A stretch of DNA of 64,000 nt from Candidatus Heimdallarchaeota archaeon (GCA_019057815.1 JAHLWR010000004.1:96001-160000); one strand, 5' to 3'. Shown: positions 157 to 12,591, counted from the stretch's first letter. Notes: generated from the sequence alone by a model not told the origin. Numbers and translations are program-made.

Positions 157-480
157 ATATAAATTGAAAAATGATGGTTTATATAACTTCTCAAAAGTCA
201 AAATTATCCTTCTTCTTCATCTTCGGAACAAGAATTGATTTTTTCAAACCAAGATGGTTTTTAACTGAAAACTATCTAAATAATTGAAAAGGTATATTTG
301 TCAATCTAAACTGAAATTACAAACATTCGAAAGTCTTTTTATATCAAAATGCTTTGAAATTACAGAGAAGAATGACGACTATTAAGCTTGAAAAATCAGA
401 AGTTGAAGAACTGATCAATTATAAATTAAGGAATCTACATAAAGAAATTCAGAATATCCTAGACAGATGGAATGAAACTT

Positions 481-1875
481 CTATGAGCTAAGTTCTTTGT
501 ACAAGGACTTATTTTGGTTTAAACGGAACTATGTTGAGGAACAACAGAGCGACGTGAAGGTCGACTCAGACAACCACTACCACCTATCTTCTCAAGTGAA
601 GACTCAGGGGCTACTTTTTTGAGGATGTTTAATGCACCATTAATATCAGCATTCAAAACTAATCCACAGTTAGAGCAAACGTATAATCCTCGATATTTGC
701 GATTGGCTTTTCTTCGCTGACCACATTGAGAACAGGTCTGAGAGGTGTAGGCTTCATCAACTTCCTTATAATCAATTCCATGAAATTCACTCTTCGTTCG
801 CAATTTATGCTTGAATAAACTGTAAGTAATGTAGTGAAAATTCTGTGTAGTTCTCTTACCCAACCTACAATTCTTTTTAATGTTTTTCATTTCCCCAATG
901 ACTATGGTGCCAATATTGTTTATTTTACAATGTTTGATTATCTCGTTTACTGCTTGAGACATGAAGTTACGCAAATAATACTTTCTTTTTCTGTCTAATT
1001 GCATCATTTTGGTGCCAGTTTTGATCTCTTTCTTATCATATTTTTTTTGTAATTCTGCTTTCTTCTTATTCCACCAACGATTAAAAGATTTTATTCCACG
1101 TCCTTCGATTATGAAGGCTGTCCCGTCAGTGTCAACTATTGTTGCGAAATTATCTAACCCTAGGTCAATTCCCAGATATTTAGTTTCGTCAATATTGATA
1201 CTTTCTTTCTCCTTATAATAAACAAACACTATTTCGAAATACATCCCATAACTGCGAGGAAGAATTCTAACTTCTTTCACTTTTTCCGCTCTAAGATGAC
1301 TAGGGAAGCTAAATCTCAAGAACCGTTTATTAAGATTTTTTGTTATCCACTTTCCAAGTGAGAGTCTGATTGTTTTCCCTTGCACTTTAAAATAATCAGG
1401 AGTAAAGGAAAGGTGAAAGAATCCTTCTTTTGGTAAGTACCATGGTTCTCTAACCATTTCGGTGTATTTTCCTTGTTTTTTAGCTTTCATTAAGCTAAAA
1501 AAGGATTTGTAAGCTTGTTCGGCTCTTCTAGCGGTTTGTTGTGCTATTTGCGCTGGTAGACGCTGATAATACTCATTTATTTTTATCTTTGGATAGGCTT
1601 TTTTATATGATAGAAATCTTTTCTTCTTCATCCATTCCTCTTTCATTAACCACAGCGTGTGATTATAGACATTCTTTGACCATCGGGAAAGTTTCTTCAG
1701 TATCCAGTACTCTTCTTTCGATAAAGCTCTAAGATGGTTTTGTTGTACCCGATACATCATTATTCTATTCTTATTTTCCTATTTAAACCCCCGTAAGACT
1801 CTTGACTGAAAGTATTCTCTTCTCCCTTTTTTCTTAGAAAGATTTTTCTATCCTTGTACAAAAAAGAGAACCTAT
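481..1875 (-). mobile_element. TnpB-only (non-autonomous) insertion element with terminal inverted repeats
   Basis: CTAT direct repeat at 481-484 and 1872-1875; ungapped 25-bp inverted repeat 483-507 vs 1851-1875 (18/25, inner 12 bp TTTGTACAAGGA perfect); interrupts a host ORF; no tnpA inside. Confidence 0.9.
519..1760 (-). CDS. tnpB: RNA-guided endonuclease TnpB
   Basis: RuvC-I GIDLG, IVIGE, DEAYTSQ, Zn finger CSQC...CSNC, RuvC-III NADING. Confidence 0.95.
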   Translation of the reverse strand: MMYRVQQNHLRALSKEEYWILKKLSRWSKNVYNHTLWLMKEEWMKKKRFLSYKKAYPKIKINEYYQRLPAQIAQQTARRAEQAYKSFFSLMKAKKQGKYTEMVREPWYLPKEGFFHLSFTPDYFKVQGKTIRLSLGKWITKNLNKRFLRFSFPSHLRAEKVKEVRILPRSYGMYFEIVFVYYKEKESINIDETKYLGIDLGLDNFATIVDTDGTAFIIEGRGIKSFNRWWNKKKAELQKKYDKKEIKTGTKMMQLDRKRKYYLRNFMSQAVNEIIKHCKINNIGTIVIGEMKNIKKNCRLGKRTTQNFHYITYSLFKHKLRTKSEFHGIDYKEVDEAYTSQTCSQCGQRRKANRKYRGLYVCSNCGLVLNADINGALNILKKVAPESSLEKIGGSGCLSRPSRRSVVPQHSSV

Positions 1876-1996
1876 AGATAATTTTGTAGAAAAAGCTCGT
1901 AATGGCACCTATGAGGAAGCTGAGAATGATGCAATTGATATTCGACAACTAGTTTTAGAACAGAAAAAACTACAAGAATTGCAAGAAAAATTGTAG

Positions 1997-2188
1997 TTGA
2001 TTAAAATGAATGCAGATGCAAAGATATTCACTGCTCTGAAGTTTATACAGAATACATTTACAAGAAATATAACTAGTTTTAAAAAAGATGAGGATAGACC
2101 AGTAATAAGCAACTATTTCGATATTGGGATTAATCTTAACAATTTCATAACTCAGAGAAAAATTTTAAAAAGAGAACTAATATGTTAA
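1997..2188 (+). CDS. Short hypothetical ORF, possibly a truncated partner of the interrupted gene
   Basis: Starts immediately after the stop of the reconstructed gene; no recognisable motif. Confidence 0.3.
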   Translation: MIKMNADAKIFTALKFIQNTFTRNITSFKKDEDRPVISNYFDIGINLNNFITQRKILKRELIC

Positions 2189-2983
2189 CTCCCTTTTTTG
2201 AAAAATCCACAGTGATGCAACAAGTGCAACAATCCCCACACCTAGAAGCACAAAGAAATCAACTACTGGAAATACTCCTGATTCTAGAATATTACCTGCT
2301 GCCATATAGTTGAAAATTGAAAAATATTTCAGTATTTTAAGGGATTCAACTATACCTCCAATTCTCACAATTATATACATAGCTAATATCACAAATGCTG
2401 ATACTCCTAAAGCTTTACGTGACTCTAAAAACAATGCACCACAAAGCAAAGAAATAGCCCCAAGAGCAAAGAAAAGCATCCAAATACCAATCAGAGAGTA
2501 AGTGAGAATGGTATAATCCATTTGCTCTCCCATTAAAGAGGTACTTAAATAGGAAACGAACAAAATTATGATTGGATACAACAAGTTGTATGTTAAATAA
2601 ACTAAGAATTTTTCCAACAAAAACCTCCATCGAGGGATAGGTAGGCTAAGCATCATATCAAGAGTTTTTTTGTCAACCTCTGTAGTAATTATTCTTGATG
2701 GAAAGAAGATAACAAGAAACACCAAAATCATTTCTAACCAGAGGAAGATATACATATAGTACATTCCCATCCAAGTGGAAAAGTCACTGATTCCTAAATG
2801 TCCGAGAAAACCAGCATAAATTGGACTCTCCAGAATCTCTTTAAACATTGCTGAAGCTTTCTGTAATTCAGGCCAGATAGCAGAAATCATCGGGACCATC
2901 ATAACAATAAATAGAGGAGGAAATATCCCGCTCTTCCAGTTCTTTAACAGATTTTTTAGATATACTTGTACCATTGCCTTCAA
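2177..2983 (-). CDS. ABC-2 type transporter permease
   Basis: About 6 TM helices, EVDKKTLDMMLSLPIPR motif, adjacent to the ATPase. Confidence 0.9.
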   Translation of the reverse strand: MKAMVQVYLKNLLKNWKSGIFPPLFIVMMVPMISAIWPELQKASAMFKEILESPIYAGFLGHLGISDFSTWMGMYYMYIFLWLEMILVFLVIFFPSRIITTEVDKKTLDMMLSLPIPRWRFLLEKFLVYLTYNLLYPIIILFVSYLSTSLMGEQMDYTILTYSLIGIWMLFFALGAISLLCGALFLESRKALGVSAFVILAMYIIVRIGGIVESLKILKYFSIFNYMAAGNILESGVFPVVDFFVLLGVGIVALVASLWIFQKRELTY

Positions 2984-3913
2984 CTACTCGTAATAATGCA
3001 AGAAAATCTCTTCGAGAGATGCATCTTCAATTGTTATTCTTTCAACATCATAATCGGTGAGCCATGAAAGGAGTTCATCAATATTTCCTTTAATTTTCAA
3101 TCTATATGCATTTTTATTTGATTTTTCAAATGATACAATTGATTGAACAGATTTGAAATCCTTCTCATTAGGGCTATTATTAGACGAAAAAACAATCTTA
3201 ATATTTTGAAGGAATTTATTTTTCAAATCTTCAATCTTCTCTACAAGGATTATTTTACCATCCTTGATAATAGCTACTCTATCACATACAGCTTGAACTT
3301 CGGAAAGATCATGCGAACTGAGAAAGATGGTTATACCTTCAGATTTGAGTTGTTTTATTATTCTATGAAATCTGGAGGTAATTAAAGGGTCTAAACCTGA
3401 CGTAGGTTCGTCTAGAAGGAGAAATGTAGGTTTTGATGCTAGAGCTAATATGATTCCCACTTGTTTTTTATTTCCGGATGAGAGAGTTCTGATTTTTTTA
3501 GTTAAATCAACTGTAAAATTATCTTTAAGTTCTTTTAGAAATTCTTCCTTATGAGGTTTAAATTTGTTGAAATATTTGATTAATTCAGCACCAGTGAAAT
3601 TATCGTATAAAGCTAATTCTCCAGGTATGTATCCTATCTTTTTTCTAATCTCGATATAATCTTTTTTGTGATCAAAACCAAGAACAGTTATTTCACCTGT
3701 TTGAATATGAAGATAGTTTAGAATTGCTCTCATAGTTGTTGTTTTACCTGCACCATTAGGTCCCAGAAAACCAAAAATTTCACCTTTATAGACAGTAAAA
3801 CTAACTTCTTGGGCTCCAATGACTTCCCTTCCAAATTTCTTAAACCTAAGATTAATTTCACGTCCGTAGATTTTTGTTAAATTATCAACTCTAAGTATGA
3901 CTTCACTGGACAT
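2984..3913 (-). CDS. ABC transporter ATP-binding protein
   Basis: Walker A GPNGAGKT, signature LSSGN, Walker B LLLDEPT, SSH switch. Confidence 0.95.
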   Translation of the reverse strand: MSSEVILRVDNLTKIYGREINLRFKKFGREVIGAQEVSFTVYKGEIFGFLGPNGAGKTTTMRAILNYLHIQTGEITVLGFDHKKDYIEIRKKIGYIPGELALYDNFTGAELIKYFNKFKPHKEEFLKELKDNFTVDLTKKIRTLSSGNKKQVGIILALASKPTFLLLDEPTSGLDPLITSRFHRIIKQLKSEGITIFLSSHDLSEVQAVCDRVAIIKDGKIILVEKIEDLKNKFLQNIKIVFSSNNSPNEKDFKSVQSIVSFEKSNKNAYRLKIKGNIDELLSWLTDYDVERITIEDASLEEIFLHYYE

Positions 3914-4036
3914 TTCTTTCGACTGTCGAATAAAAGGTTAATTTATAAACTTATCACTTTTTTCAGCAAATTCCTTCGGTTAGCAACAGTTTCAGTAGAT
4001 TTAACATCTTATTTTCCTTTTTTTATATCTTTTTTT

Positions 4037-5068
4037 TCATCCAGCTTTAAGTAACAAAGCCCAGATCCAATCAATAAGTGTGTGCAGTAACATAGCAGAA
4101 AACAATCCACCAAATATCCAGCAAACACCATAAATAACTCCTGCAATTGCTGCTAGAAGTATATATACCCAGATAAATTCAGGGGAAGTGTTATTCCAAT
4201 GCGTTACTGCAAAAGCAATGGATGCTATAACAACTGCTACCCATCTCCAATAAGGATATATTCTACTCTTTTTTTTCACAATTTTTTCAGTCAATTGATG
4301 TTGTATAATGCCTCTCGCAATTGTTTCCTCGGGTAAAGCTATCGTAAGCCATATTCCTATAAAACTTACAACAAACATCCCAAAACCTGACCATTCAGGA
4401 GACCAAACTAAGAAATCAGTTATTAAACCGATAGGGATAGCTATTACACAAAGAATTAACAATCCTATGAATGGAATGAAGAGTTTCTTCAGAGTGATTT
4501 TCCAGTTGAATTTTTCAGTAAACTCTTCTAATTGAATGGAAAAGAGAAGAAGAATCAAAGCAGACATCCATAAAGCATTAAATTCATACTTCATCTCATC
4601 GAAACCATTAATCACGTCGTAAGTGTATCTATTATCAAACCCTATAGCAAAAATTACTACAGCTGAGATGTGGAAGATAAAATCTATCCTTTTTATGTGA
4701 CGATGCTTAATTATTACAGGAAGAATCATAAGAGCTGTGGGAAGGATATACCAAAGAAGATAGGAATATAGAGCTGAAACAATATCTTGTGAAAATATCC
4801 ATGAAAGTAGAGGAAGAAATAATACTAGGGATATTACTCCCCAATAGAACCATTTCTTTGAATTCAGTAACTCGATAATCTTAACATTCGTTAATGGAAT
4901 AAGAAGGAAAAAAATAACACTTGCTAGAATAAACATGAGAATTGCAAAAAAAACCGATTGAACTGGTGTTCCTTGTGGTTCGACTAGTACAACTGTTACA
5001 GTAAGTATCAAAGATATTATTGCATTAAAGATTGAACAAAATATGAACTTCTTGTTTTCTGGTTCCAT
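4037..5068 (-). CDS. CPBP (CAAX protease/Abi) family intramembrane protease
   Basis: EETIARG (EExxxR), FAVTH and HTLID motifs; multiple TM helices. Confidence 0.9.
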   Translation of the reverse strand: MEPENKKFIFCSIFNAIISLILTVTVVLVEPQGTPVQSVFFAILMFILASVIFFLLIPLTNVKIIELLNSKKWFYWGVISLVLFLPLLSWIFSQDIVSALYSYLLWYILPTALMILPVIIKHRHIKRIDFIFHISAVVIFAIGFDNRYTYDVINGFDEMKYEFNALWMSALILLLFSIQLEEFTEKFNWKITLKKLFIPFIGLLILCVIAIPIGLITDFLVWSPEWSGFGMFVVSFIGIWLTIALPEETIARGIIQHQLTEKIVKKKSRIYPYWRWVAVVIASIAFAVTHWNNTSPEFIWVYILLAAIAGVIYGVCWIFGGLFSAMLLHTLIDWIWALLLKAG

Positions 5069-5159
5069 ATATTTACTAAAATTATGTACTTTTAAATTAC
5101 ACTCTCACTTTTTATTGGTTATTTTTACCTTGAAATTCAAGGAGAAATAGAGATGTCAA

Positions 5160-5618
5160 GTGACAAATACTTTTATTTCAAGAATTATAGTTGAAACCAT
5201 GGCTCGAAAGGTTATGATTTTGATTTTAGGATGTTTTGTTGCAGCTGCAGGTATGTTCTTTGTACTTTCAGCTACTGCTTTTCCAAAACTAGCAGAAGTT
5301 AGCATTTTTCTATCACCCAAATACTCTGTAGCAGACTTAGGTGAAACAGGAATGATTTTTGTTCGTAGTCTATCAGCAGTGTTAGGAGGACTAATGATTG
5401 GATGGGGGATAACAATAATGTATTTTGCTTATCATTTCACTAGAAAAGCAAGGTTATTTCTGTTAATAGCTATTGTAACATGGTTTACAACGGATAGTAT
5501 TGGATCATTATTAAATGACCTCCATTACAATGTTATATTAAATGCTGTTTTTCTTATCTTTGGTTTGACAGTTCTCTTCTTATCAAAAACGGAAGAACAG
5601 TTAGAAGAAAAGGTTTAA
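5160..5618 (+). CDS. 4-TM membrane protein
   Basis: Hydrophobic ORF with GGLMIGWG and WFTTDS; real start is probably the ATG at 5199. Confidence 0.7.
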   Translation: MTNTFISRIIVETMARKVMILILGCFVAAAGMFFVLSATAFPKLAEVSIFLSPKYSVADLGETGMIFVRSLSAVLGGLMIGWGITIMYFAYHFTRKARLFLLIAIVTWFTTDSIGSLLNDLHYNVILNAVFLIFGLTVLFLSKTEEQLEEKV

Positions 5619-5880
5619 AACCATTTTTACTCTTTCTGATAAGGTTTGTCTCGCAATTTTTCTTTAGTATCTATCTGTTCTGTCCATTGAATCCTGCTAT
5701 TATTAGCGAAGGGGACATATTCATGTAAATCGAATGGGTTTCAAAAGATATCTTACTGAAAAATGTTAACAATAAACGAAAGAGAAATGCAACTTAGTTT
5801 TGATAATGAAATGAAAGAAGGGGATTTGATGCGAAATTGGAAAGGGTTAGAAATAGAAAAAGAATTAAGTTGAGAAAATC

Positions 5881-5982
5881 CTCTCCTCCCTACGATAACT
5901 TTTCTATTCTTAGGCTTTGGAATAGTGGCGCAACAACGAAGAAAGAGTGAATAGGTACCTTTTCTTCTTTCTTTATTTCTTC
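5881..5982 (+). repeat. Orphan copy of the 3' end and terminator of the NosD-type gene
   Basis: 5881-5940 matches 8301-8360 at 53/60; similarity continues into the T-rich terminator. Confidence 0.85.
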
Positions 5983-6124
5983 TTACATTTTTTTAGTATA
6001 TCATAGAACTGTCTAATCACTTTGAAGATAGGTCACTCTTTATAGGTTTCCTTCTACCTCTAACAGAAGTATTATATTTCCTAAAGTAGATTGTTATAAG
6101 AATTTAAATCTTTGTTGATGAAAT

Positions 6125-8371
6125 ATGAAAAGACAATCAAAACAGTCTAAAATTACAATTACAAGCGTTCTATGTGTTTTATTGATAATTGGTGGAATAA
6201 GTACGTTCTCAAGTATGAGCGTAAATGCTACAACTGTATCCTATGAACCCCCCTCTCACTTCTCACTGATTCCACATGATTCTATTGAAGTTGCTTCTGA
6301 TAGTGACTTTGAGGTTTTTCCAGGCTCTGGAACAGCTGAAGATCCTTATGTTATTGAAGGGTATAATATTACAACATCAAGTTCAAGTGGAATTTATATT
6401 TATGGTACAACCAAATTTTTCATTGTTCGAAACTGTTATGTTGACGCAGAAAACTATGGAATTTTAATCTGGAATGTAACTTATGGAACTGTAACTATTG
6501 AGAATAACACGTTCAGCAACAACGGATGGGGTATCTATCTAGAAAATGATGGTTCTACCGTTTCCGACAACACTTGCAGCTACAACAACCACTATGGCAT
6601 CTATCTTTGGTATTCTTCTGGTTCTACTGTTGCCAACAACACTTGCAGCTACAACAACTGGAGAGGCATCATGTTTGAGACTTCTGGTAGTTCTACAGTG
6701 GTAAACAACACATGCAATAACAATGGTGGTGAAGGCATCACTCTTTCCTCTTCTGGTAGTTCGACGGTGGCAAACAACACATGCAATAACAATGGCGGGA
6801 AAAGCGTCTATCTTTACTATTCTGATAGTTCAACTGTTGCTAACAACACGTGTAGCTACAACGACTATGGTATCTGGCTTGAGGATTCTAATTCTTCAAC
6901 CGTTGCCAACAACACGTGTAATAACAACTACTACCATGGTATCTATCTAGACTCTGCTGATTCTTCTACTGTTGCCAACAACACGTGTAATAACAACTAC
7001 TACTATGGTATCTGGCTTGAGGGTTCTAGTTTTTGTGTTGTTACTTACAACCTTCTACAAGAAAATGGAGAATATGGAATATATTTACACTCTTATTCTG
7101 ATAACACTCTTATTCACCATAATAACCTTGTAGACAATAATCTAGGAGGAACATCACAAGCGTATGACGATGGAAATAGTAATACTTGGCATGATATTGA
7201 AACACTTGAAGGTAACTATTGGTCTGACTGGTCTGGAACAGATTCTTATGCTATTGATGGTGCTGGTGGTGCAAACGATCTTTATCCTCTTGATGAACCA
7301 ACTTTTTACCTTGGTTCTCCTGTTATTACAGAAATTATCCACTCTCCCTCTTCTCCGACAGAACTCGATACTGTTATTATTAATGCTATTGTAACTAACC
7401 CTCATGGTGTTCAAAGTGTTACTCTACACTACAGAGTCATTAGTGAAATATGGATAGAAGTTAGTATGACTCTTGTGAGTGGTGATCTCTATAATGTAGC
7501 TATAGGTCCTTTTGCAGTTAGCGACACAGTTGAATATTATATCACTGCAGTAGACAACTCTATTCACCACAATGAAGCTACAGGGGATAACTCAGGCTTA
7601 TATTATTCTTTTACAATCGATTCTTCTGACAATACTGGTCCTGCAATTAACGATATCGTACACTCTCCCTCTTCTCCGACAGAACTCAATACTATTAGTA
7701 TAAATGCTACAGTTACAGACGCTTCTAGTGTTCAAAGTGTTACTCTTCATTACAGAGTCAATAGTGGGACTTGGATAGAAGCTAGTATGACTATTAAAAG
7801 TGGTGATATTTATTCTGTGACTATTGGTTCCTTTGCAGTGAGTGATACTATCGAATATTACATTAGTGCCATAGATAACTCTGTTAATCATAATGAAGCT
7901 CTAGAAAATAATAACAGGCAATACTATAACCTATTCGTAGGTTCTTCTGATGTTATTGGTCCAAATATTACTAGTATTATTCATTCTCCCTCTTCTCCGA
8001 CAGAACTCGATACTGTCAATATCAATGCTACTGTTATTAGCCCTTATGGTGTGCATTCAGTTACTCTCCGCTATAGAATCAATAGTGGAACCTGGCAGAC
8101 AATCAGTATGGCGCGTATAAGTGGTGATTTTTACAGCGTAACTATCGGTTCCTTTGCAGTGAGTGATACTATCGAATATTACATTAGTGCACTAGATAAC
8201 TCTATCAGTCATAATTTGGCAATCAACGATAATTCTGGAGAGTATTACTCATTTACTATACTTTCTTATGAGGATGAAACAAGGACTGTAATGTTCCCTC
8301 TTCTCCTACCCGCGATAACTTCTCTATTCTTGGGCTTTGGAATAGTGGTGCAACAACGAAGAAAGAAATAA
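6125..8371 (+). CDS. Cell-surface protein: parallel beta-helix (NosD/CASH) repeats, three Ig-like domains, C-terminal TM anchor
   Basis: Signal peptide, GSGTAEDPYVIEG, repeated TVANNTC..N..GI.L, GNYWSDW, 3x HSPSSPTE domain, TM plus QQRRKK. Confidence 0.9.
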   Translation: MKRQSKQSKITITSVLCVLLIIGGISTFSSMSVNATTVSYEPPSHFSLIPHDSIEVASDSDFEVFPGSGTAEDPYVIEGYNITTSSSSGIYIYGTTKFFIVRNCYVDAENYGILIWNVTYGTVTIENNTFSNNGWGIYLENDGSTVSDNTCSYNNHYGIYLWYSSGSTVANNTCSYNNWRGIMFETSGSSTVVNNTCNNNGGEGITLSSSGSSTVANNTCNNNGGKSVYLYYSDSSTVANNTCSYNDYGIWLEDSNSSTVANNTCNNNYYHGIYLDSADSSTVANNTCNNNYYYGIWLEGSSFCVVTYNLLQENGEYGIYLHSYSDNTLIHHNNLVDNNLGGTSQAYDDGNSNTWHDIETLEGNYWSDWSGTDSYAIDGAGGANDLYPLDEPTFYLGSPVITEIIHSPSSPTELDTVIINAIVTNPHGVQSVTLHYRVISEIWIEVSMTLVSGDLYNVAIGPFAVSDTVEYYITAVDNSIHHNEATGDNSGLYYSFTIDSSDNTGPAINDIVHSPSSPTELNTISINATVTDASSVQSVTLHYRVNSGTWIEASMTIKSGDIYSVTIGSFAVSDTIEYYISAIDNSVNHNEALENNNRQYYNLFVGSSDVIGPNITSIIHSPSSPTELDTVNINATVISPYGVHSVTLRYRINSGTWQTISMARISGDFYSVTIGSFAVSDTIEYYISALDNSISHNLAINDNSGEYYSFTILSYEDETRTVMFPLLLPAITSLFLGFGIVVQQRRKK

Positions 8372-8770
8372 TTTCTTCCTTTCTTCTTTCTTTATTTCTT
8401 CCTTCTCAATGCTAAGAATGTAAAGATAGCTAATATTATCTGGAATCCTTCAACAATACCAGCAAGGATAATTATTTCTCCAAACTCAATGTTCTGGAAT
8501 ATACCTGTATTATTTTCATCTCCGTTTCTTACAATTATGATTATTTGAAAGATTTTTGAAGGGATGAACATTTTAGGGGTCTATTTAGGTCGTTCTAGAA
8601 CAAGAATTTGAACTGGTGATAGCACTTATACTGTGGCATTAGTAGCAGTATTAAGCAACAAAGCCAAGCTGCAACGGTAGTAAAGAAAAAGGAAACAATG
8701 GAATAAAGAAAACAAAGCTAAAACACTTTTTTTCTATTCTATTTCAAGAATAATAATCAATAATTCTTAT

Positions 8771-9250
8771 ATGACCACAAGAAAGATAAGATATATGATA
8801 AGAAAAGCTGTTGGAGCTATTGTAAAATATAATGATAAATTTCTTTTAATTCACAAGGTCAAAATAATGGATGCAGGAGACGCACCAATAGAAATTGAAG
8901 GAGAGTGGGATTTTCCTAAGGGAGGAATAAAATTAGATGATCTTGACTTAAAGAAAGCGATTTTGCGTGAACTAAAGGAAGAAACAGGTTCAAATCAATA
9001 CTTAATCATCAAAGAATTCAAAGAAAAAATCACTTTTACGTTTCCACCAGCTATAAGGGACAAATCAGGTTATCAAAGCCAAGAAACAACAATGTTCTTG
9101 GTTGAGTATGTAGGGGACATAAATGATTTAAACCCACAAGATGAAGAAATAGATGAAATCTATTTTATCTCAAAAGAGGAAGTTATGAAGAAATTACATC
9201 ATCAAGAAATGAAAGACTTCTTTTTAAAAATCAGTTCGTTTCTAGACTGA
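8771..9250 (+). CDS. NUDIX hydrolase
   Basis: Nudix box GGIKLDDLDLKKAILRELKEETG. Confidence 0.9.
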   Translation: MTTRKIRYMIRKAVGAIVKYNDKFLLIHKVKIMDAGDAPIEIEGEWDFPKGGIKLDDLDLKKAILRELKEETGSNQYLIIKEFKEKITFTFPPAIRDKSGYQSQETTMFLVEYVGDINDLNPQDEEIDEIYFISKEEVMKKLHHQEMKDFFLKISSFLD

Positions 9251-9421
9251 TTTTAAAAAGCTTGGTAGAAACTCGTCTAATAGTGCATTCTTATGTTGTA
9301 TACTCAAAGAAGTATGGTTCCAGTGATTACAGAATGAAAATAACTTTTCTAGATTTCATCTTGATAACACTATTTGGTGGAATAAGTCTAACTTGAAAAA
9401 GAGAAAAATTATATTGTAATC

Positions 9422-9675
9422 CTATGACTTTATTTTTTTACAAATTCTTTAGAAGTGCTTGGGCACATCATGGGGACGTTACATCCCCTCTTACACCACC
9501 CACACCCTCTTACAAGGATGCTTACGGTTCGCTTTTGGTTTTTTATTAGATGCAGACCTGAGGATTATAATGAAGTTAATGCATAGCTACAACCCTTTGA
9601 AGGATAATCTATATGACACTATATAGAATTCATTGATTAATACCATAATTTAAAATATATAAAAATTCCATCTAT
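9422..9675 (-). mobile_element. MITE A, TnpB-derived, omegaRNA-like
   Basis: Reverse-complement homologue of 12352-12557; CTAT at 9422-9425 and 9672-9675; right end ...GTCAT; intergenic. Confidence 0.75.
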
Positions 9676-9714
9676 TGGTAGAAACAACCAATCAAATAGT
9701 AAGGAGAAAAAACT

Positions 9715-10008
9715 ATGATAAGCAAATCTACAATAATTAATACCTTAAAACAAGAATTTTCATATCTTAAATCAAAGTATTATGTAAAAAAAATAGGTAT
9801 TTTTGGTTCATTTGCAAGGGATGAACAAAGAGAAACAAGTGATGTTGATATTATTGTAGATTTTAACCGACCAATTGGATTTTTCATATTTCTACAGTTG
9901 GAAGATTATATTAGTGAAAAACTTGGTATAAAAGTAGATTTAGTTACACCTGAAGCCTTGAAACCATTACTCAAGGAAGAAATATTAGAGGAGACAATCT
10001 ATGTCTAA
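9715..10008 (+). CDS. mntA: Minimal nucleotidyltransferase (MNT) antitoxin
   Basis: FGSFARDE...SDVDI and VDLVT motifs; overlaps the HEPN gene. Confidence 0.93.
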   Translation: MISKSTIINTLKQEFSYLKSKYYVKKIGIFGSFARDEQRETSDVDIIVDFNRPIGFFIFLQLEDYISEKLGIKVDLVTPEALKPLLKEEILEETIYV

Positions 10009-10345
10009 CAAAAGAGTAAGACTCTATCTACAAGATATAGAAGAATCAATTAACAAAATCCAATCATTCATTGAAGGAATGGGATATGATGATTTTTATT
10101 ATGACGAAAAGACAAAAGCAGCTGTAATTAGAATGCTCGAGATTATCGGTGAAGCTGTAAAAAATATTCCTAATGAAATTAGAATAAAATATGATAATGT
10201 CCCCTGGAAACCAATAGCAAGAATGAGAGATAAGCTAATTCACGCATATTTTGGAGTAAGTTATAAAATTGTGTGGGAAACAATTCAAAATGATCTTCCA
10301 CGTCTATCACAAACAATAAAAGCTATTCTAGAAGATGGAGTTTAA
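10001..10345 (+). CDS. hepT: HEPN (DUF86) RNase toxin
   Basis: IIGEA and RDKLIHAY (Rx4HxY) motifs. Confidence 0.93.
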   Translation: MSNKRVRLYLQDIEESINKIQSFIEGMGYDDFYYDEKTKAAVIRMLEIIGEAVKNIPNEIRIKYDNVPWKPIARMRDKLIHAYFGVSYKIVWETIQNDLPRLSQTIKAILEDGV

Positions 10346-10503
10346 AAATCATCCACGTACTAGGAAGTGTATTATTTCCAAGTAATTGAAAATAACTTCT
10401 CTTATACATCACTTGTTTTTCAAGTTTTGGTTAAACCAATCTAATGTCTCTTTAACAATTTCTAGGACATTCTTTAACACAGATTTTGCATGTAATACAA
10501 TCT

Positions 10504-11940
10504 TCATGATGAGTTTTTGTCCTGTTGTCTTATACGACAGACAGAGGTGAGTGTATTTATTAGAGGTCAAGATATAGCGCACAGGAGATACTCTATACTC
10601 ACTCTAAGCGGATACATCACGTATCCTCCTACCCCGTTCACCTTACATTTAGGTAAAGCTTTCGGATCGCTTTTTTTCAAGATATTGTAGGCAGCATTGA
10701 CATCAGCGTTGATCAGATGACCATGAGAGGATCTAAACAAGCCTCGAGTTATCCGTTTTCCAGCATAGTGCTTCCTAGCTTCTGGGAATTCGTTATCAAG
10801 GAAACTACATTTAGAGGTATACTTTTCGGGGATGGTCTCCACGTTTATCCCTCTCTCTGCTGCTTTGTAGCGTAAGATGTCGATGATTCGCATGAAGGGG
10901 ATGGTGACAAACATTTGGGTTATCTTCTTCCAGAAATGCATCCCTTGTTTCCATTTCTTGTTGTAGCCGATAATCACCTCATGTAGCCCTCGTTCTACCC
11001 ACAAGTCTACCAAGTAACAAGTGAGCTGGTGGATAGCTTCTTTAAGTTTCCTTCGCCACTTCTCCTTAAGCTTGTAGTAGGCTTGCCCATAACTGAGCCT
11101 AGTGTTTCCTTTCAGTAGCTGCCTTTGCTGTTGAGCATATTGGATCTGTAATTGTTTCTGTTTTTTCAAATAGAATTGTGTTATACTCTTTATTCCTTTC
11201 CCTGCATCCTTGATAACAATCGGTTGGTTCCCGAGGTTATCCACAAAGGTGGCAAGGTTGACCATCCCTAAATCTACCGCTCCCTTCCGTATCATCCGTT
11301 TCTGAACTTTAGGTAAGGTTTTCTGATACACAAGTTCAAGAGTATAGCCTACTCTTCGGGGGATGATTCGCACTTCTCTTAGCTTTGTAACGGAGGTCAA
11401 TCGTGTCTTGTAATTGTATCCCACTTTCTTTGGAAGCACTAACCACTCGTTGACGATTCTTGCTTGCTGATTGGTGAAAATCGCTACCACTTCCCCGTTC
11501 TTAGGTTTGTAATTCGGTGGCTTGGGCATAGCGAAGAACTGCTCAGGATTGCTTTTCCACTCCTTTAACGCTTGAAAAAATCCTTTCCAGTTTCTGCACA
11601 GGAGTTTGAGTGTGTGTTGTGCGGTGTGCGCAGGAAGCACGCGGTAACACTCTTCATGCTTAAGTAGCTTATTCAAGTCGTTATAGAATAGAAGTTTCTT
11701 CTCTTTGTTTAATGATCTTTTTATCAGAAAGTTTGCTCGATTATAGAGATTCTTTACTTGATGACACAGTGTGCTTAACGCTGGATGATAGTTCACTTCT
11801 ATACATTCCACTCTCAGCACTGTTGTCATCGCTTCTTTATCTAGATATTCTTATAAAAACTCTCTCAATATCTGCGCTAAACTATCCATTTAAACTGATT
11901 CATCTGTAGTTAATAGTACACCAAGACAAAAACCCATCAT
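10504..11940 (-). mobile_element. TnpB-only insertion element with terminal inverted repeats
   Basis: 16-bp inverted repeat ATGATGAGTTTTTGTC (10506-10521) vs GACAAAAACCCATCAT (11925-11940), 15/16; TCAT direct repeat at 10504-10507 and 11937-11940. Confidence 0.8.
10567..11829 (-). CDS. tnpB: TnpB with rearranged RuvC-II and no zinc finger
   Basis: AVDLG; IIGYN at the canonical Glu position; PEKYTSKCSFLD; RGLF; NADVNAAYNI. Confidence 0.93.
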   Translation of the reverse strand: MTTVLRVECIEVNYHPALSTLCHQVKNLYNRANFLIKRSLNKEKKLLFYNDLNKLLKHEECYRVLPAHTAQHTLKLLCRNWKGFFQALKEWKSNPEQFFAMPKPPNYKPKNGEVVAIFTNQQARIVNEWLVLPKKVGYNYKTRLTSVTKLREVRIIPRRVGYTLELVYQKTLPKVQKRMIRKGAVDLGMVNLATFVDNLGNQPIVIKDAGKGIKSITQFYLKKQKQLQIQYAQQQRQLLKGNTRLSYGQAYYKLKEKWRRKLKEAIHQLTCYLVDLWVERGLHEVIIGYNKKWKQGMHFWKKITQMFVTIPFMRIIDILRYKAAERGINVETIPEKYTSKCSFLDNEFPEARKHYAGKRITRGLFRSSHGHLINADVNAAYNILKKSDPKALPKCKVNGVGGYVMYPLRVSIEYLLCAIS

Positions 11941-12066
11941 AAAACCAACTAATAACATCTTCAGTACCTATAAAAGCTTTTTCTAAGTCTGGATTTTGGA
12001 CTACTAGTATATCTAAACATAGGACTATCCAAAAGTACTTACTAAATAAAGTGGTCAAAGAAAAAC

Positions 12067-12122
12067 ATGAAGAGTTTTTGTCTTCTTATCTCATAAAACG
12101 AGGTGAAAAAAACTCATTATGA
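12067..12122 (+). mobile_element. 56-bp mini-element made only of TnpB2-type ends
   Basis: ATGAAGAGTTTTTGTC ... GAAAAAAACTCATTATGA; ATGA at both junctions; both ends resemble the termini of 10504-11940. Confidence 0.55.
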
Positions 12123-12162
12123 TTTCAACAATTAGCCAAAGTATTTTTAAAACAAAATCACT

Positions 12163-12591
12163 ATGTTAGTTTTAGTATTCAATCAGATAGATAACGGTGA
12201 TGGTTATACTGACGGAGAAAAAGTAGATCGTGAGATAGATCCAACAGATCCTATTGATTATCCTATGGTACCAGAATTCTCGAGTTTATCTCTACTCATG
12301 TTATTACCTCTCCTAACAGTTATAAGCAGTTTTTTGTACATTTTTGTGGTGTTTATATAAGGTAGTATAAATTATCCTTTGAAGGATTGTAGATATGCAT
12401 CAACTTCATGGTGATCCTCAGGTCTACATCCAACAAAAACCCAAAAGCGAAACCGTAAGCATATTCGTGAGAAGATGTGGGCGGTGTAGGAGGGTATGTG
12501 GCGTACCCATGATGTGCTGAAGGCACTTCTAAAGGATTTGTACAAAATTCATGTCATAACTCTAGTTTTACGTAAAAGAAAGGAAGATTAA
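12163..12591 (+). pseudogene. 3' remnant of a surface protein (Asp-rich Ca-binding-type repeat, VPEF, TM, basic tail) split by MITE B
   Basis: DGYTDGE...DPTDPIDYP-VPEF; removing MITE B restores ...LLPLLTV|ITLVLRKRKED*. Confidence 0.75.
12322..12559 (+). mobile_element. MITE B, TnpB-derived, omegaRNA-like
   Basis: ATAA at 12322-12325 and 12556-12559; ends read inward ATAAGCAGTTTTTTGTACA and ATGACATGAATTTTGTACA; encodes GVGGYVAYP, matching the TnpB2 C-terminus GVGGYVMYP. Confidence 0.88.

Follow-up and report, generated by a model that had tools for sequence, protein, structure and literature searches.

Non-autonomous TnpB elements of a Heimdallarchaeon share only an AT with their target sites, a pattern that may reflect IS607-like recombination in trans

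Between positions 483 and 12557 of the 64,000-nucleotide window analysed here (contig C1:96001-160000 of a 3.74-Mb, 32.8% GC assembly of a Candidatus Heimdallarchaeota archaeon, GCA_019057815.1, JAHLWR010000004.1; genome G000) there are two elements carrying tnpB alone, two miniature inverted-repeat transposable elements (MITEs A and B) and one 52-nt mini-element, all of which are non-autonomous elements of the TnpB type with predicted guide RNAs. A first-pass annotation had delimited these five elements and read their junctions as a duplication of four bases, ATNN, or as a recombination core that varied after AT. The elements exist and the 4-mers quoted for them lie within 1-2 nt of where they had been placed, but only the AT is shared; the NN that follows it at the left junction is the tip of the element, while the NN at the right junction is host DNA. 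We suggest, from the form of the junctions, that the elements may be moved in trans by conservative, IS607-like recombination across the central AT of a palindromic TCAT/GA (outside brackets, a slash marks a cleavage or junction point), a proposal whose chances we regard as evenly balanced.

The origin of each base was established from sites that are empty in G001, a sister genome of the same genus. The two window tnpB genes give their names, B1 and B2, to two families, and all junctions were tabulated in the tnpB sense. The B1 element (1391 nt, positions 483-1873, minus strand; a second copy on contig C12 is 89% identical over the same span) has its left tip, AG, at 1873-1872, adjoining a host-side copy of AT at 1875-1874, and its right end, ..GCTCAT, stops at 483. 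It splits a host open reading frame (ORF; 372-1996, plus strand) whose halves are in frame across a single ATA codon, and in G001 the empty site, GAAACTTCTAT/AGATAA, lies in an intact homologue whose product (..RWNETS-I-DKFVEK..) corresponds exactly to both window halves. MITE B (234 nt, 12324-12557, plus strand; one of eight full copies in the genome) splits a second host ORF (12163-12591, plus strand), where deletion of the 234 nt yields the expected 64-codon frame; the site is empty in G001 (CAGTTATAACTCTAG), and the form free of MITE B, with 12321 joined to 12556, recurs in contigs of an unrelated cold-seep metagenome (run X3). The earlier contention that these two boundaries are fixed independently by restoration of host ORFs is in agreement with both empty sites and with the intact ORF.

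Two further copies, on contigs C46 and C1 (C1b), have mismatched NN. At C46 the left junction reads AATT-AT-GA.. and the right ..AATC-AT-AG, and the G001 empty site is AATT-AT-AGAG; at C1b the corresponding sequences are TTTTT-AT-GA.., ..CATC-AT-TA and TTTTT-AT-TAATC. The left NN of both copies, GA, is not in the host's empty site and therefore arrives with the element, and in all four comparisons AT occurs once when the site is empty and twice when it is occupied. A fifth site is filled in both genomes by different B2 subfamilies (G000 C31:17790-19160; locus L157 in G001, C71:1372-2799; host ..CTTTAT/CGTCTAAAAG..), and here the left junction follows the element (ATGA versus ATAA) while the right is ATCG in both. 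Such double occupancy points to one of two events, the repeated targeting of a single site or a replacement at the left junction, which itself regenerates a TTAT/RA target (R, purine). Among the eight full MITEs, moreover, the left junction is invariably ATAA and the right is ATAA in four, ATAT in three and ATAG in one. Since the empty sites of mismatched copies, the site occupied by two subfamilies and the table of MITE ends all agree, the left NN is element tip, the right NN is host DNA and only AT is shared; the first two, together with a permutation analysis of 44 relatives given below, lead us to reject a duplication of four bases or of NN, and a core that varies after AT fares no better. 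A 2-bp duplication of AT and a crossover at AT give the same sequence pattern.

G000 has approximately 39 TnpB-domain matches, including eleven full B2 copies in three subfamilies and two full B1 copies, and the core of its MITEs resembles the 3' region of one B2 subfamily. Across at least 54 elements the left host flank is T(87%)-T-A-T, the tip begins R-A and the right end, (C)ATCAT, is invariant. All curated copies have host (T)TAT at the left junction, followed by an 8-nt tip (G or A, then A, then about six variable bases) that sets a constant distance to the first TTTGTC-type motif, and ..(C)ATCAT followed by variable DNA at the right. That DNA is mildly biased, with a purine at +1 in 67% and A at +2 in 57%, mirroring the invariant R-A of the tip. 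By the 8-nt rule, the apparent ATGT/ATGT duplication of copy C24 is coincidental, the boundary falling at TTAT/ATGTTGAG.

It had been reported that NN differs between copies yet matches within each copy, and this is partly true. When the first bases of tip and right flank were compared against 20,000 re-pairings, NN matched in 8 of 13 TnpB copies of G000 (expected 2.9, p about 0.001), whereas the MITEs of the same genome showed no excess (4 of 8, expected 4.0) and elements from other genomes matched no more often than chance (6 of 44, expected 7.4, p 0.84); the result that the first annotation had named as telling against its reading is thus seen in the relatives but not in G000. We read the local excess as a probable preference for the near-palindromic target TTAT/RA, which accounts for it loosely. 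Target preference hardly explains a 5-nt match of tip to flank, AAATG, in two copies of different B2 subfamilies (C44:26306-27740 and C37:8284-9652). These have about 16 nt of surrounding sequence in common, (T/A)AAATAT/AAATGTATC, which in uninterrupted form is found at no other place in the genome, and each combines the non-consensus left flank ATAT with a tip beginning AAATG. In a B2-like element of a relative (L122, JAAFKJ010000079.1) seven nucleotides of the 8-nt left tip, AATGACTG, are matched in the right flank, AATGACTA, far more than the general pattern would give.

The ends are mirror images of one another, and the end tables uphold the first reading of them as inverted motifs unlike the hairpin pairs of IS605. 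The left end of B2 consists of the 8-nt tip, TTTGTCAT, 3-4 nt and (T)GTCAT, so that two TGTCA-type motifs stand a constant 8 nt from the tip; the right end repeats this arrangement in inverted, mirror form. In the window copy (1433 nt, 10506-11938, minus strand; three copies, 97% identical, with different flanks) the tip GATGGGTT precedes TTTGTC and the right end is a hairpin, GACAAAAACTCATCAT. B1 and the MITEs have the same layout built from a T-run and GTAC(AA) (TTGTAC-type), at a fixed distance from both tips; MITE B, for instance, begins AAGCAG followed by TTTTTTGTAC and ends TTTGTACAAAATTCATGTCAT, around a core corresponding to the 3' region of one B2 subfamily. With DNA parameters, alifold returned no consensus structure for either end and no conserved hairpin on the left, which comprises direct motif repeats with weak, variable stems visible by eye. 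Joined together, the ends would read ..GACAAAAACTCATC-AT-GATGGGTTTTTGTC.., two inverted half-sites about a central AT. An internal control is offered by B3 and two IS608-like autonomous elements of G000, which bear same-strand hairpins and TTAC/...TCAA/ or TTTAA-type junctions. B3 is a 10-copy tnpB-only family (C46:45701-47073 and nine more) with ordinary IS605 hairpin ends, and its right-end hairpin resembles that of the IS608-like tnpA-tnpB elements at C4:62367-64164 and C8:9948-11744 (TTAC/...TCAA/).

In the mechanism that we favour, the element would excise as a double-stranded circle, its ends joining into a near-palindromic crossover site with the core TC-AT-GA, and the circle would then recombine over the central AT with host TT-AT-NN. 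Insertion would leave host TTAT and the tip (R-A...) on the left and ..TCAT with host NN on the right; the apparent ATNN duplication would then amount to one shared AT plus a tip, GA or AA, that happens to be like the preferred right half of the target, TTAT/RA. The recombinase would act in trans, a serine enzyme being the most likely class, and TTAT may double as the target-adjacent motif (TAM) of the TnpB nuclease. We infer the circle, the exchange at AT, the class of enzyme and the TAM from these features and from precedent. IS607 elements form a double-stranded circle and exchange strands at a dinucleotide common to the joined ends and the target, without duplication (PMC4058570, PMC6188088), and their ends contain short inverted motifs needed for excision (PMC6188088; bioRxiv 10.1101/2023.11.20.567912). 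When their cores are altered, the left junction keeps the donor dinucleotide and the right takes that of the target (bioRxiv 10.1101/2023.11.20.567912), and by analogy this left-donor, right-target asymmetry is what the present junctions display.

An IS607-like mechanism had already been offered as one option, and we judge it the best fit. As in the IS607 family (IS607, IS1535, ISC1904/ISC1926 and the Clostridium botulinum IStron), one dinucleotide occurs both in the left host flank and at the right tip, with a single copy when the site is empty, there is no longer duplication, the subterminal motifs are short and inverted, the TAM overlaps the crossover site (a prediction in our case), and there are MITE-like derivatives with guide RNA only (again predicted here); B2, moreover, has its nearest TnpB outgroups linked to serine TnpA. 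The differences are equally plain. IS607 elements use GG or TGGG rather than AT within TTAT and TCAT/GA, and carry, besides TnpB and a right-end guide RNA, a serine TnpA with an N-terminal helix-turn-helix (HTH) and a catalytic domain, whereas no tnpA is found in or near any copy here; the resident IS607 TnpAs of G000 have ends unlike those of B1 and B2; and one of the cargoes, B1, comes from an IS605-type TnpB clade.

The cargo proteins have separate histories. The tnpB of B1 (413 aa, 519-1760, minus strand; PF01385 and PF07282) and that of B2 (420 aa, 10567-11829, minus strand) both encode the OrfB_IS605 domain and the Cas12f1-like TNB domain, and are about 30% identical. B1 TnpB has a zinc finger and the canonical RuvC-II Glu as well as the Glu of ExYTS; in B2 the canonical Glu is replaced (VIIGYN), a Glu stands in PEKYTS and there is no CxxC finger. 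As regards an OMEGA system, in which a RuvC triad is paired with a guide-RNA scaffold that lies at the 3' end and reaches the right end of the element, residues D, E (in ExYTS) and D are conserved here, and the MITE core matches the 3' region of tnpB. A RuvC-II Glu relocated as in B2 is the mark of the Fanzor-related lineage of IS607 TnpBs (PMC10711439). An exhaustive search placed the nearest relatives of B2 from outside the family at 42-45% identity; two of these outgroups (P0244 and P0246) lie directly behind HTH-plus-resolvase TnpA genes of 195-198 aa, a third (P0242) behind an HTH remnant, and none beside Y1. Searches of Rfam, and of PDB sequences with B2, gave no match. In the IS605-type relatives of B1, which include Caldicellulosiruptor and another Heimdall genome, the element stops at ..GTAGTTCAC, just past the tnpB stop. 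The equivalent TAGTTC of B1 (right end, window 483-560) is inside the end of the ORF, about 42 nt before the present right tip, and therefore either the boundary between scaffold and guide has moved or the guide would be internal and fixed. An IS605-lineage tnpB has thus come to lie within B2-like ends, an argument for a single enzyme that acts in trans on unrelated cargoes.

No transposase gene is linked to any copy, which supports the view of them as non-autonomous elements mobilised in trans. The only gene in B1 and B2 is tnpB, and the MITEs have none; a search of G000 with end probes for longer elements having the same ends recovered only tnpB copies, MITEs and truncated remnants, and a looser regular-expression scan for such elements gave noise only. 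Elsewhere, G000 encodes two Y1 transposases, both within IS608-like elements, and four single-copy DDE_Tnp_1 genes; DDE_3 and rve had no match in the genome and the repeat inventory contained no multi-copy DDE element. A repeated 505-aa ORF with no Pfam match did not seem transposase-like by eye. Resolvase-domain genes of 240-285 aa are present in nearly all genomes of the family, one being syntenic between G000 and G001; G000 has three chromosomal resolvase-domain genes (C1:82593-83315, C24:157167-157916 and C21:46262-47098). In the sister genus g3, of which 20 genomes were examined, IS607-type TnpA occurs in only some, and Y1 was not found in any of the 20, which hold up to 31 B2 copies.

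Several observations weigh against IS607-like recombination. No serine TnpA or resolvase gene was found within 1.5-4 kb of 92 (80+12) B2 loci from many genomes, several B2-rich relatives show no IS607-type TnpA (these being incomplete metagenome-assembled genomes, MAGs), and the three IS607-type TnpA lineages or copies of G000 have unrelated ends, GG/GGTGACC.. or ACCGTCGTCC..GTGCGT. The right-end to left-end junction of a circle or tandem was not found in the genome DNA searched or in one exact-pattern scan of metagenome contigs, which covered assembled contigs only. The right end has a hairpin, read by eye from the alignment and including the inner right-end motif as one arm, with compensatory changes (TTGTC with GACAA, TTGGC with GCCAA, TTGAC with GTCAA), and a hairpin of this kind would be equally at home in the right end of an IS605 element. 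The two cleavage points, both at T(T/C)AT, recall the TTAC and TCAA logic of IS608, and B1 is closest, at 50-55% identity, to IS605-type elements that have hairpin ends, the left flank and TAM TTTAT, and the right end ..GTAGTTCAC. Finally, the excess of NN matches in G000 (8/13), and the longer matches between tip and flank (two of 5 nt, and one of 7 nt in a relative), are explained only loosely by target preference.

The hairpin, which covaries and lies 18 nt from the tip, is among the features that would suit peel-and-paste transposition of the IS200/IS605 kind, in which a Y1 TnpA acting in trans would insert a single-stranded element 3' of TTAT, with a right end terminating in TCAT. The data contain no true duplication, insertion is 3' of a fixed (T)TAT with host NN on the right, the left TTAT and right TCAT mirror the TTAC and TCAA of IS608, B1 has IS605-type relatives with the TAM TTTAT, and Y1 genes reside in the genome. 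Elements of the IS1341 group and their PATE derivatives are also tnpB-only, exist in many diverged copies with terminal-only derivatives, and insert beside a T-rich tetranucleotide without duplication. Yet IS200/IS605 elements have same-strand hairpins at both ends, whereas here there are mirror-image motif arrays, the left end having a direct pair of TGTCA motifs but lacking a conserved hairpin; the hairpin ends of B3 and of the resident Y1 elements are of quite another form; the invariant R-A tip is palindromic with the TC of the right end, which a Y1 mechanism does not need; and most carrier genomes, including all 20 of genus g3, yielded no Y1. We therefore consider this explanation highly improbable. 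Cut-and-paste movement by a DDE enzyme, with the element taken as GA...TC and a 2-bp duplication of AT, is improbable too, although not to the same degree. It would accommodate inverted repeats extending as far as the tips (GATGGGTTTTTGTC and, reverse-complemented, GATGAGTTTTTGTC) and an AT present once in empty and twice in occupied sites, and one of the four DDE_Tnp_1 genes of G000 lies in an element (C43:177.48-178.75 kb) whose terminal inverted repeats (TIRs) start with TTTTTTGTAC, like the subterminal motif of B1 and the MITEs. However, no element with B1 or B2 ends contains another gene in G000 or in 80 related loci, DDE_3, rve and multi-copy DDE elements are missing from the searches above, and symmetric target-site duplication would not usually combine a strict TTAT on the left with a loose flank on the right. 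The C43 gene, for its part, occurs as fragments in one of 20 sister-genus genomes and was not found in G001, which has MITEs and B2; it shares only the T-run and GTAC with B1 and MITE ends and does not co-occur with the elements, so we rejected it as their partner.

The same junction logic could also be served by an enzyme other than IS607 TnpA, host-encoded or unrecognised, that services unrelated TnpB cargoes, for instance one of the small serine recombinases whose chromosomal genes are conserved throughout the family; we think this unlikely, if worth entertaining. In its favour, B1 (IS605 lineage) and B2 (IS607 lineage), despite being only 30% identical, share T(T/C)AT junctions and inverted motifs of a T-run and GT(A/C), no element-borne transposase appears in more than 90 loci, and the 240-285-aa resolvase-domain genes are nearly universal in the family, with one conserved in position between the sister genomes. 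Against it, no functional or sequence link connects these genes with the ends, they are found also in genomes where B2 was not (G002, G019), and its support is an absence of evidence in incomplete MAGs. By way of comparison, site I of gamma-delta/Tn3 res has inverted half-sites flanking a central AT, and its centre, TTATAA, resembles the target TTAT/AA; res sites differ in serving cointegrate resolution rather than transposition, and no such enzyme is linked to these elements. A related and similarly doubtful proposition is that in Heimdallarchaeia two unrelated TnpB lineages, B1 of IS605 type and B2 of IS607 type, were each captured between inverted ends of the same type and are moved across TC-AT-GA by a non-IS recombinase, possibly a chromosomal serine recombinase. 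If true, this would give the capture of Fanzors by foreign TIR transposons a prokaryotic counterpart among the archaea most closely related to eukaryotes. Fanzor-carrying TIR transposons of eukaryotes are alike in having as cargo a TnpB-type nuclease with relocated RuvC-II Glu, in lacking a transposase, and in having inverted ends, one of which is probably part of the guide-RNA scaffold (a prediction); the elements described here, by contrast, make no true target-site duplication, belong to a prokaryote and are 1.4 kb in length, and no link to a eukaryote-type transposase was found. Since inverted subterminal motifs have already been described at IS607 ends, the parallel with Fanzors, drawn at the outset, stays an analogy (PMC6188088; bioRxiv 10.1101/2023.11.20.567912).

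The spread of TnpB elements that lack a transposase (IS1341 type) is a long-standing puzzle, and in these Asgard genomes no other mobile element is as common. Besides correcting a tempting reading of the junctions as a 4-bp target duplication, this study adds the proof from empty sites of what is duplicated and what is not, the TTAT/RA target, the linkage of B2 outgroups to serine TnpA and the IS605 ancestry of B1. The exact ends, single shared AT, TTAT target and near-palindromic joined site constitute a concrete substrate for assays of excision and integration, and TTAT is offered as the predicted TAM of the nucleases, with a guide predicted to begin after ..TCAT. That a TnpB of IS605 lineage can lie between IS607-like ends is also relevant to the question of how genes for TnpB and Fanzor pass from one transposon host to another.

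With regard to the remaining window elements, MITE A (9424-9675, minus strand) has a right end and a guide-RNA-like core homologous to the MITE family, and its existence is not in doubt; its left boundary is undefined, and the ATAG duplication by which that end had been placed is no evidence for it. The first 50 or so nucleotides are unrelated to the family left end and are without the TTTGTAC motif, blastn aligns positions 51-253 only, and ATAG turns up in 27% of 60-nt stretches drawn at random from the genome. The mini-element (12069-12120, plus strand) is terminal-only and occurs once in the genome; its B2-like tips can be read directly (left GAAGAGTT followed by TTTGTC, right ..AAAAACTCATTAT), with a non-consensus left flank, ACAT, and no support from an empty site. 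It is plausibly a terminal-only derivative of B2. Haloarchaea have IS1341-type elements without a transposase and terminal-only derivatives of 52 bp, one of them reported in Haloquadratum (PMC3119063). G001 offered no empty sites for MITE A, B2 or the mini-element, the region being rearranged there between window positions 8880 and 12122; this segment, which also includes a nucleotidyltransferase/HepT pair (9715-10345), has no G001 counterpart, and about 225 unrelated bases separate the flanking matches. The right flank of another MITE copy, C30a, had no match in G001.

Several other elements came to light in the course of this work. Two IS607-type tnpA genes of G000 (C9:67852-68603 and C18:1-753; HTH plus resolvase, 197 and 204 aa) are 94% identical and have the GG/GGTGACC left end; their tnpB partner is presumed unassembled because both copies stop at contig edges at the same element position. 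A third IS607-like family (C27:145847-148591) encodes a 652-aa TnpB between the ends ACCGTCGTCC...AACGTGCGT, with a tnpA containing in-frame stops, and has gene-less MITEs at C1:35373-35757, C20:11813-12187 and C8:42394-42767, plus several solo right ends; the copy at C1:35373 sits within a GTAC-type MITE. The single-copy DDE_Tnp_1 element of contig C43 (C43:177481-178745) encodes a protein of 390 aa between TIRs matching at 22 of 25 positions, TTTTT(A/T)TGTACCAGTACTTGAACA. Finally, two metagenome contigs (L187 and L194) hold distant tnpB-only relatives of B2, 43-44% identical, one with an N-terminal extension of about 100 aa, and these insertions interrupt genes for a MASE3 histidine kinase and an N6/N4 methyltransferase.

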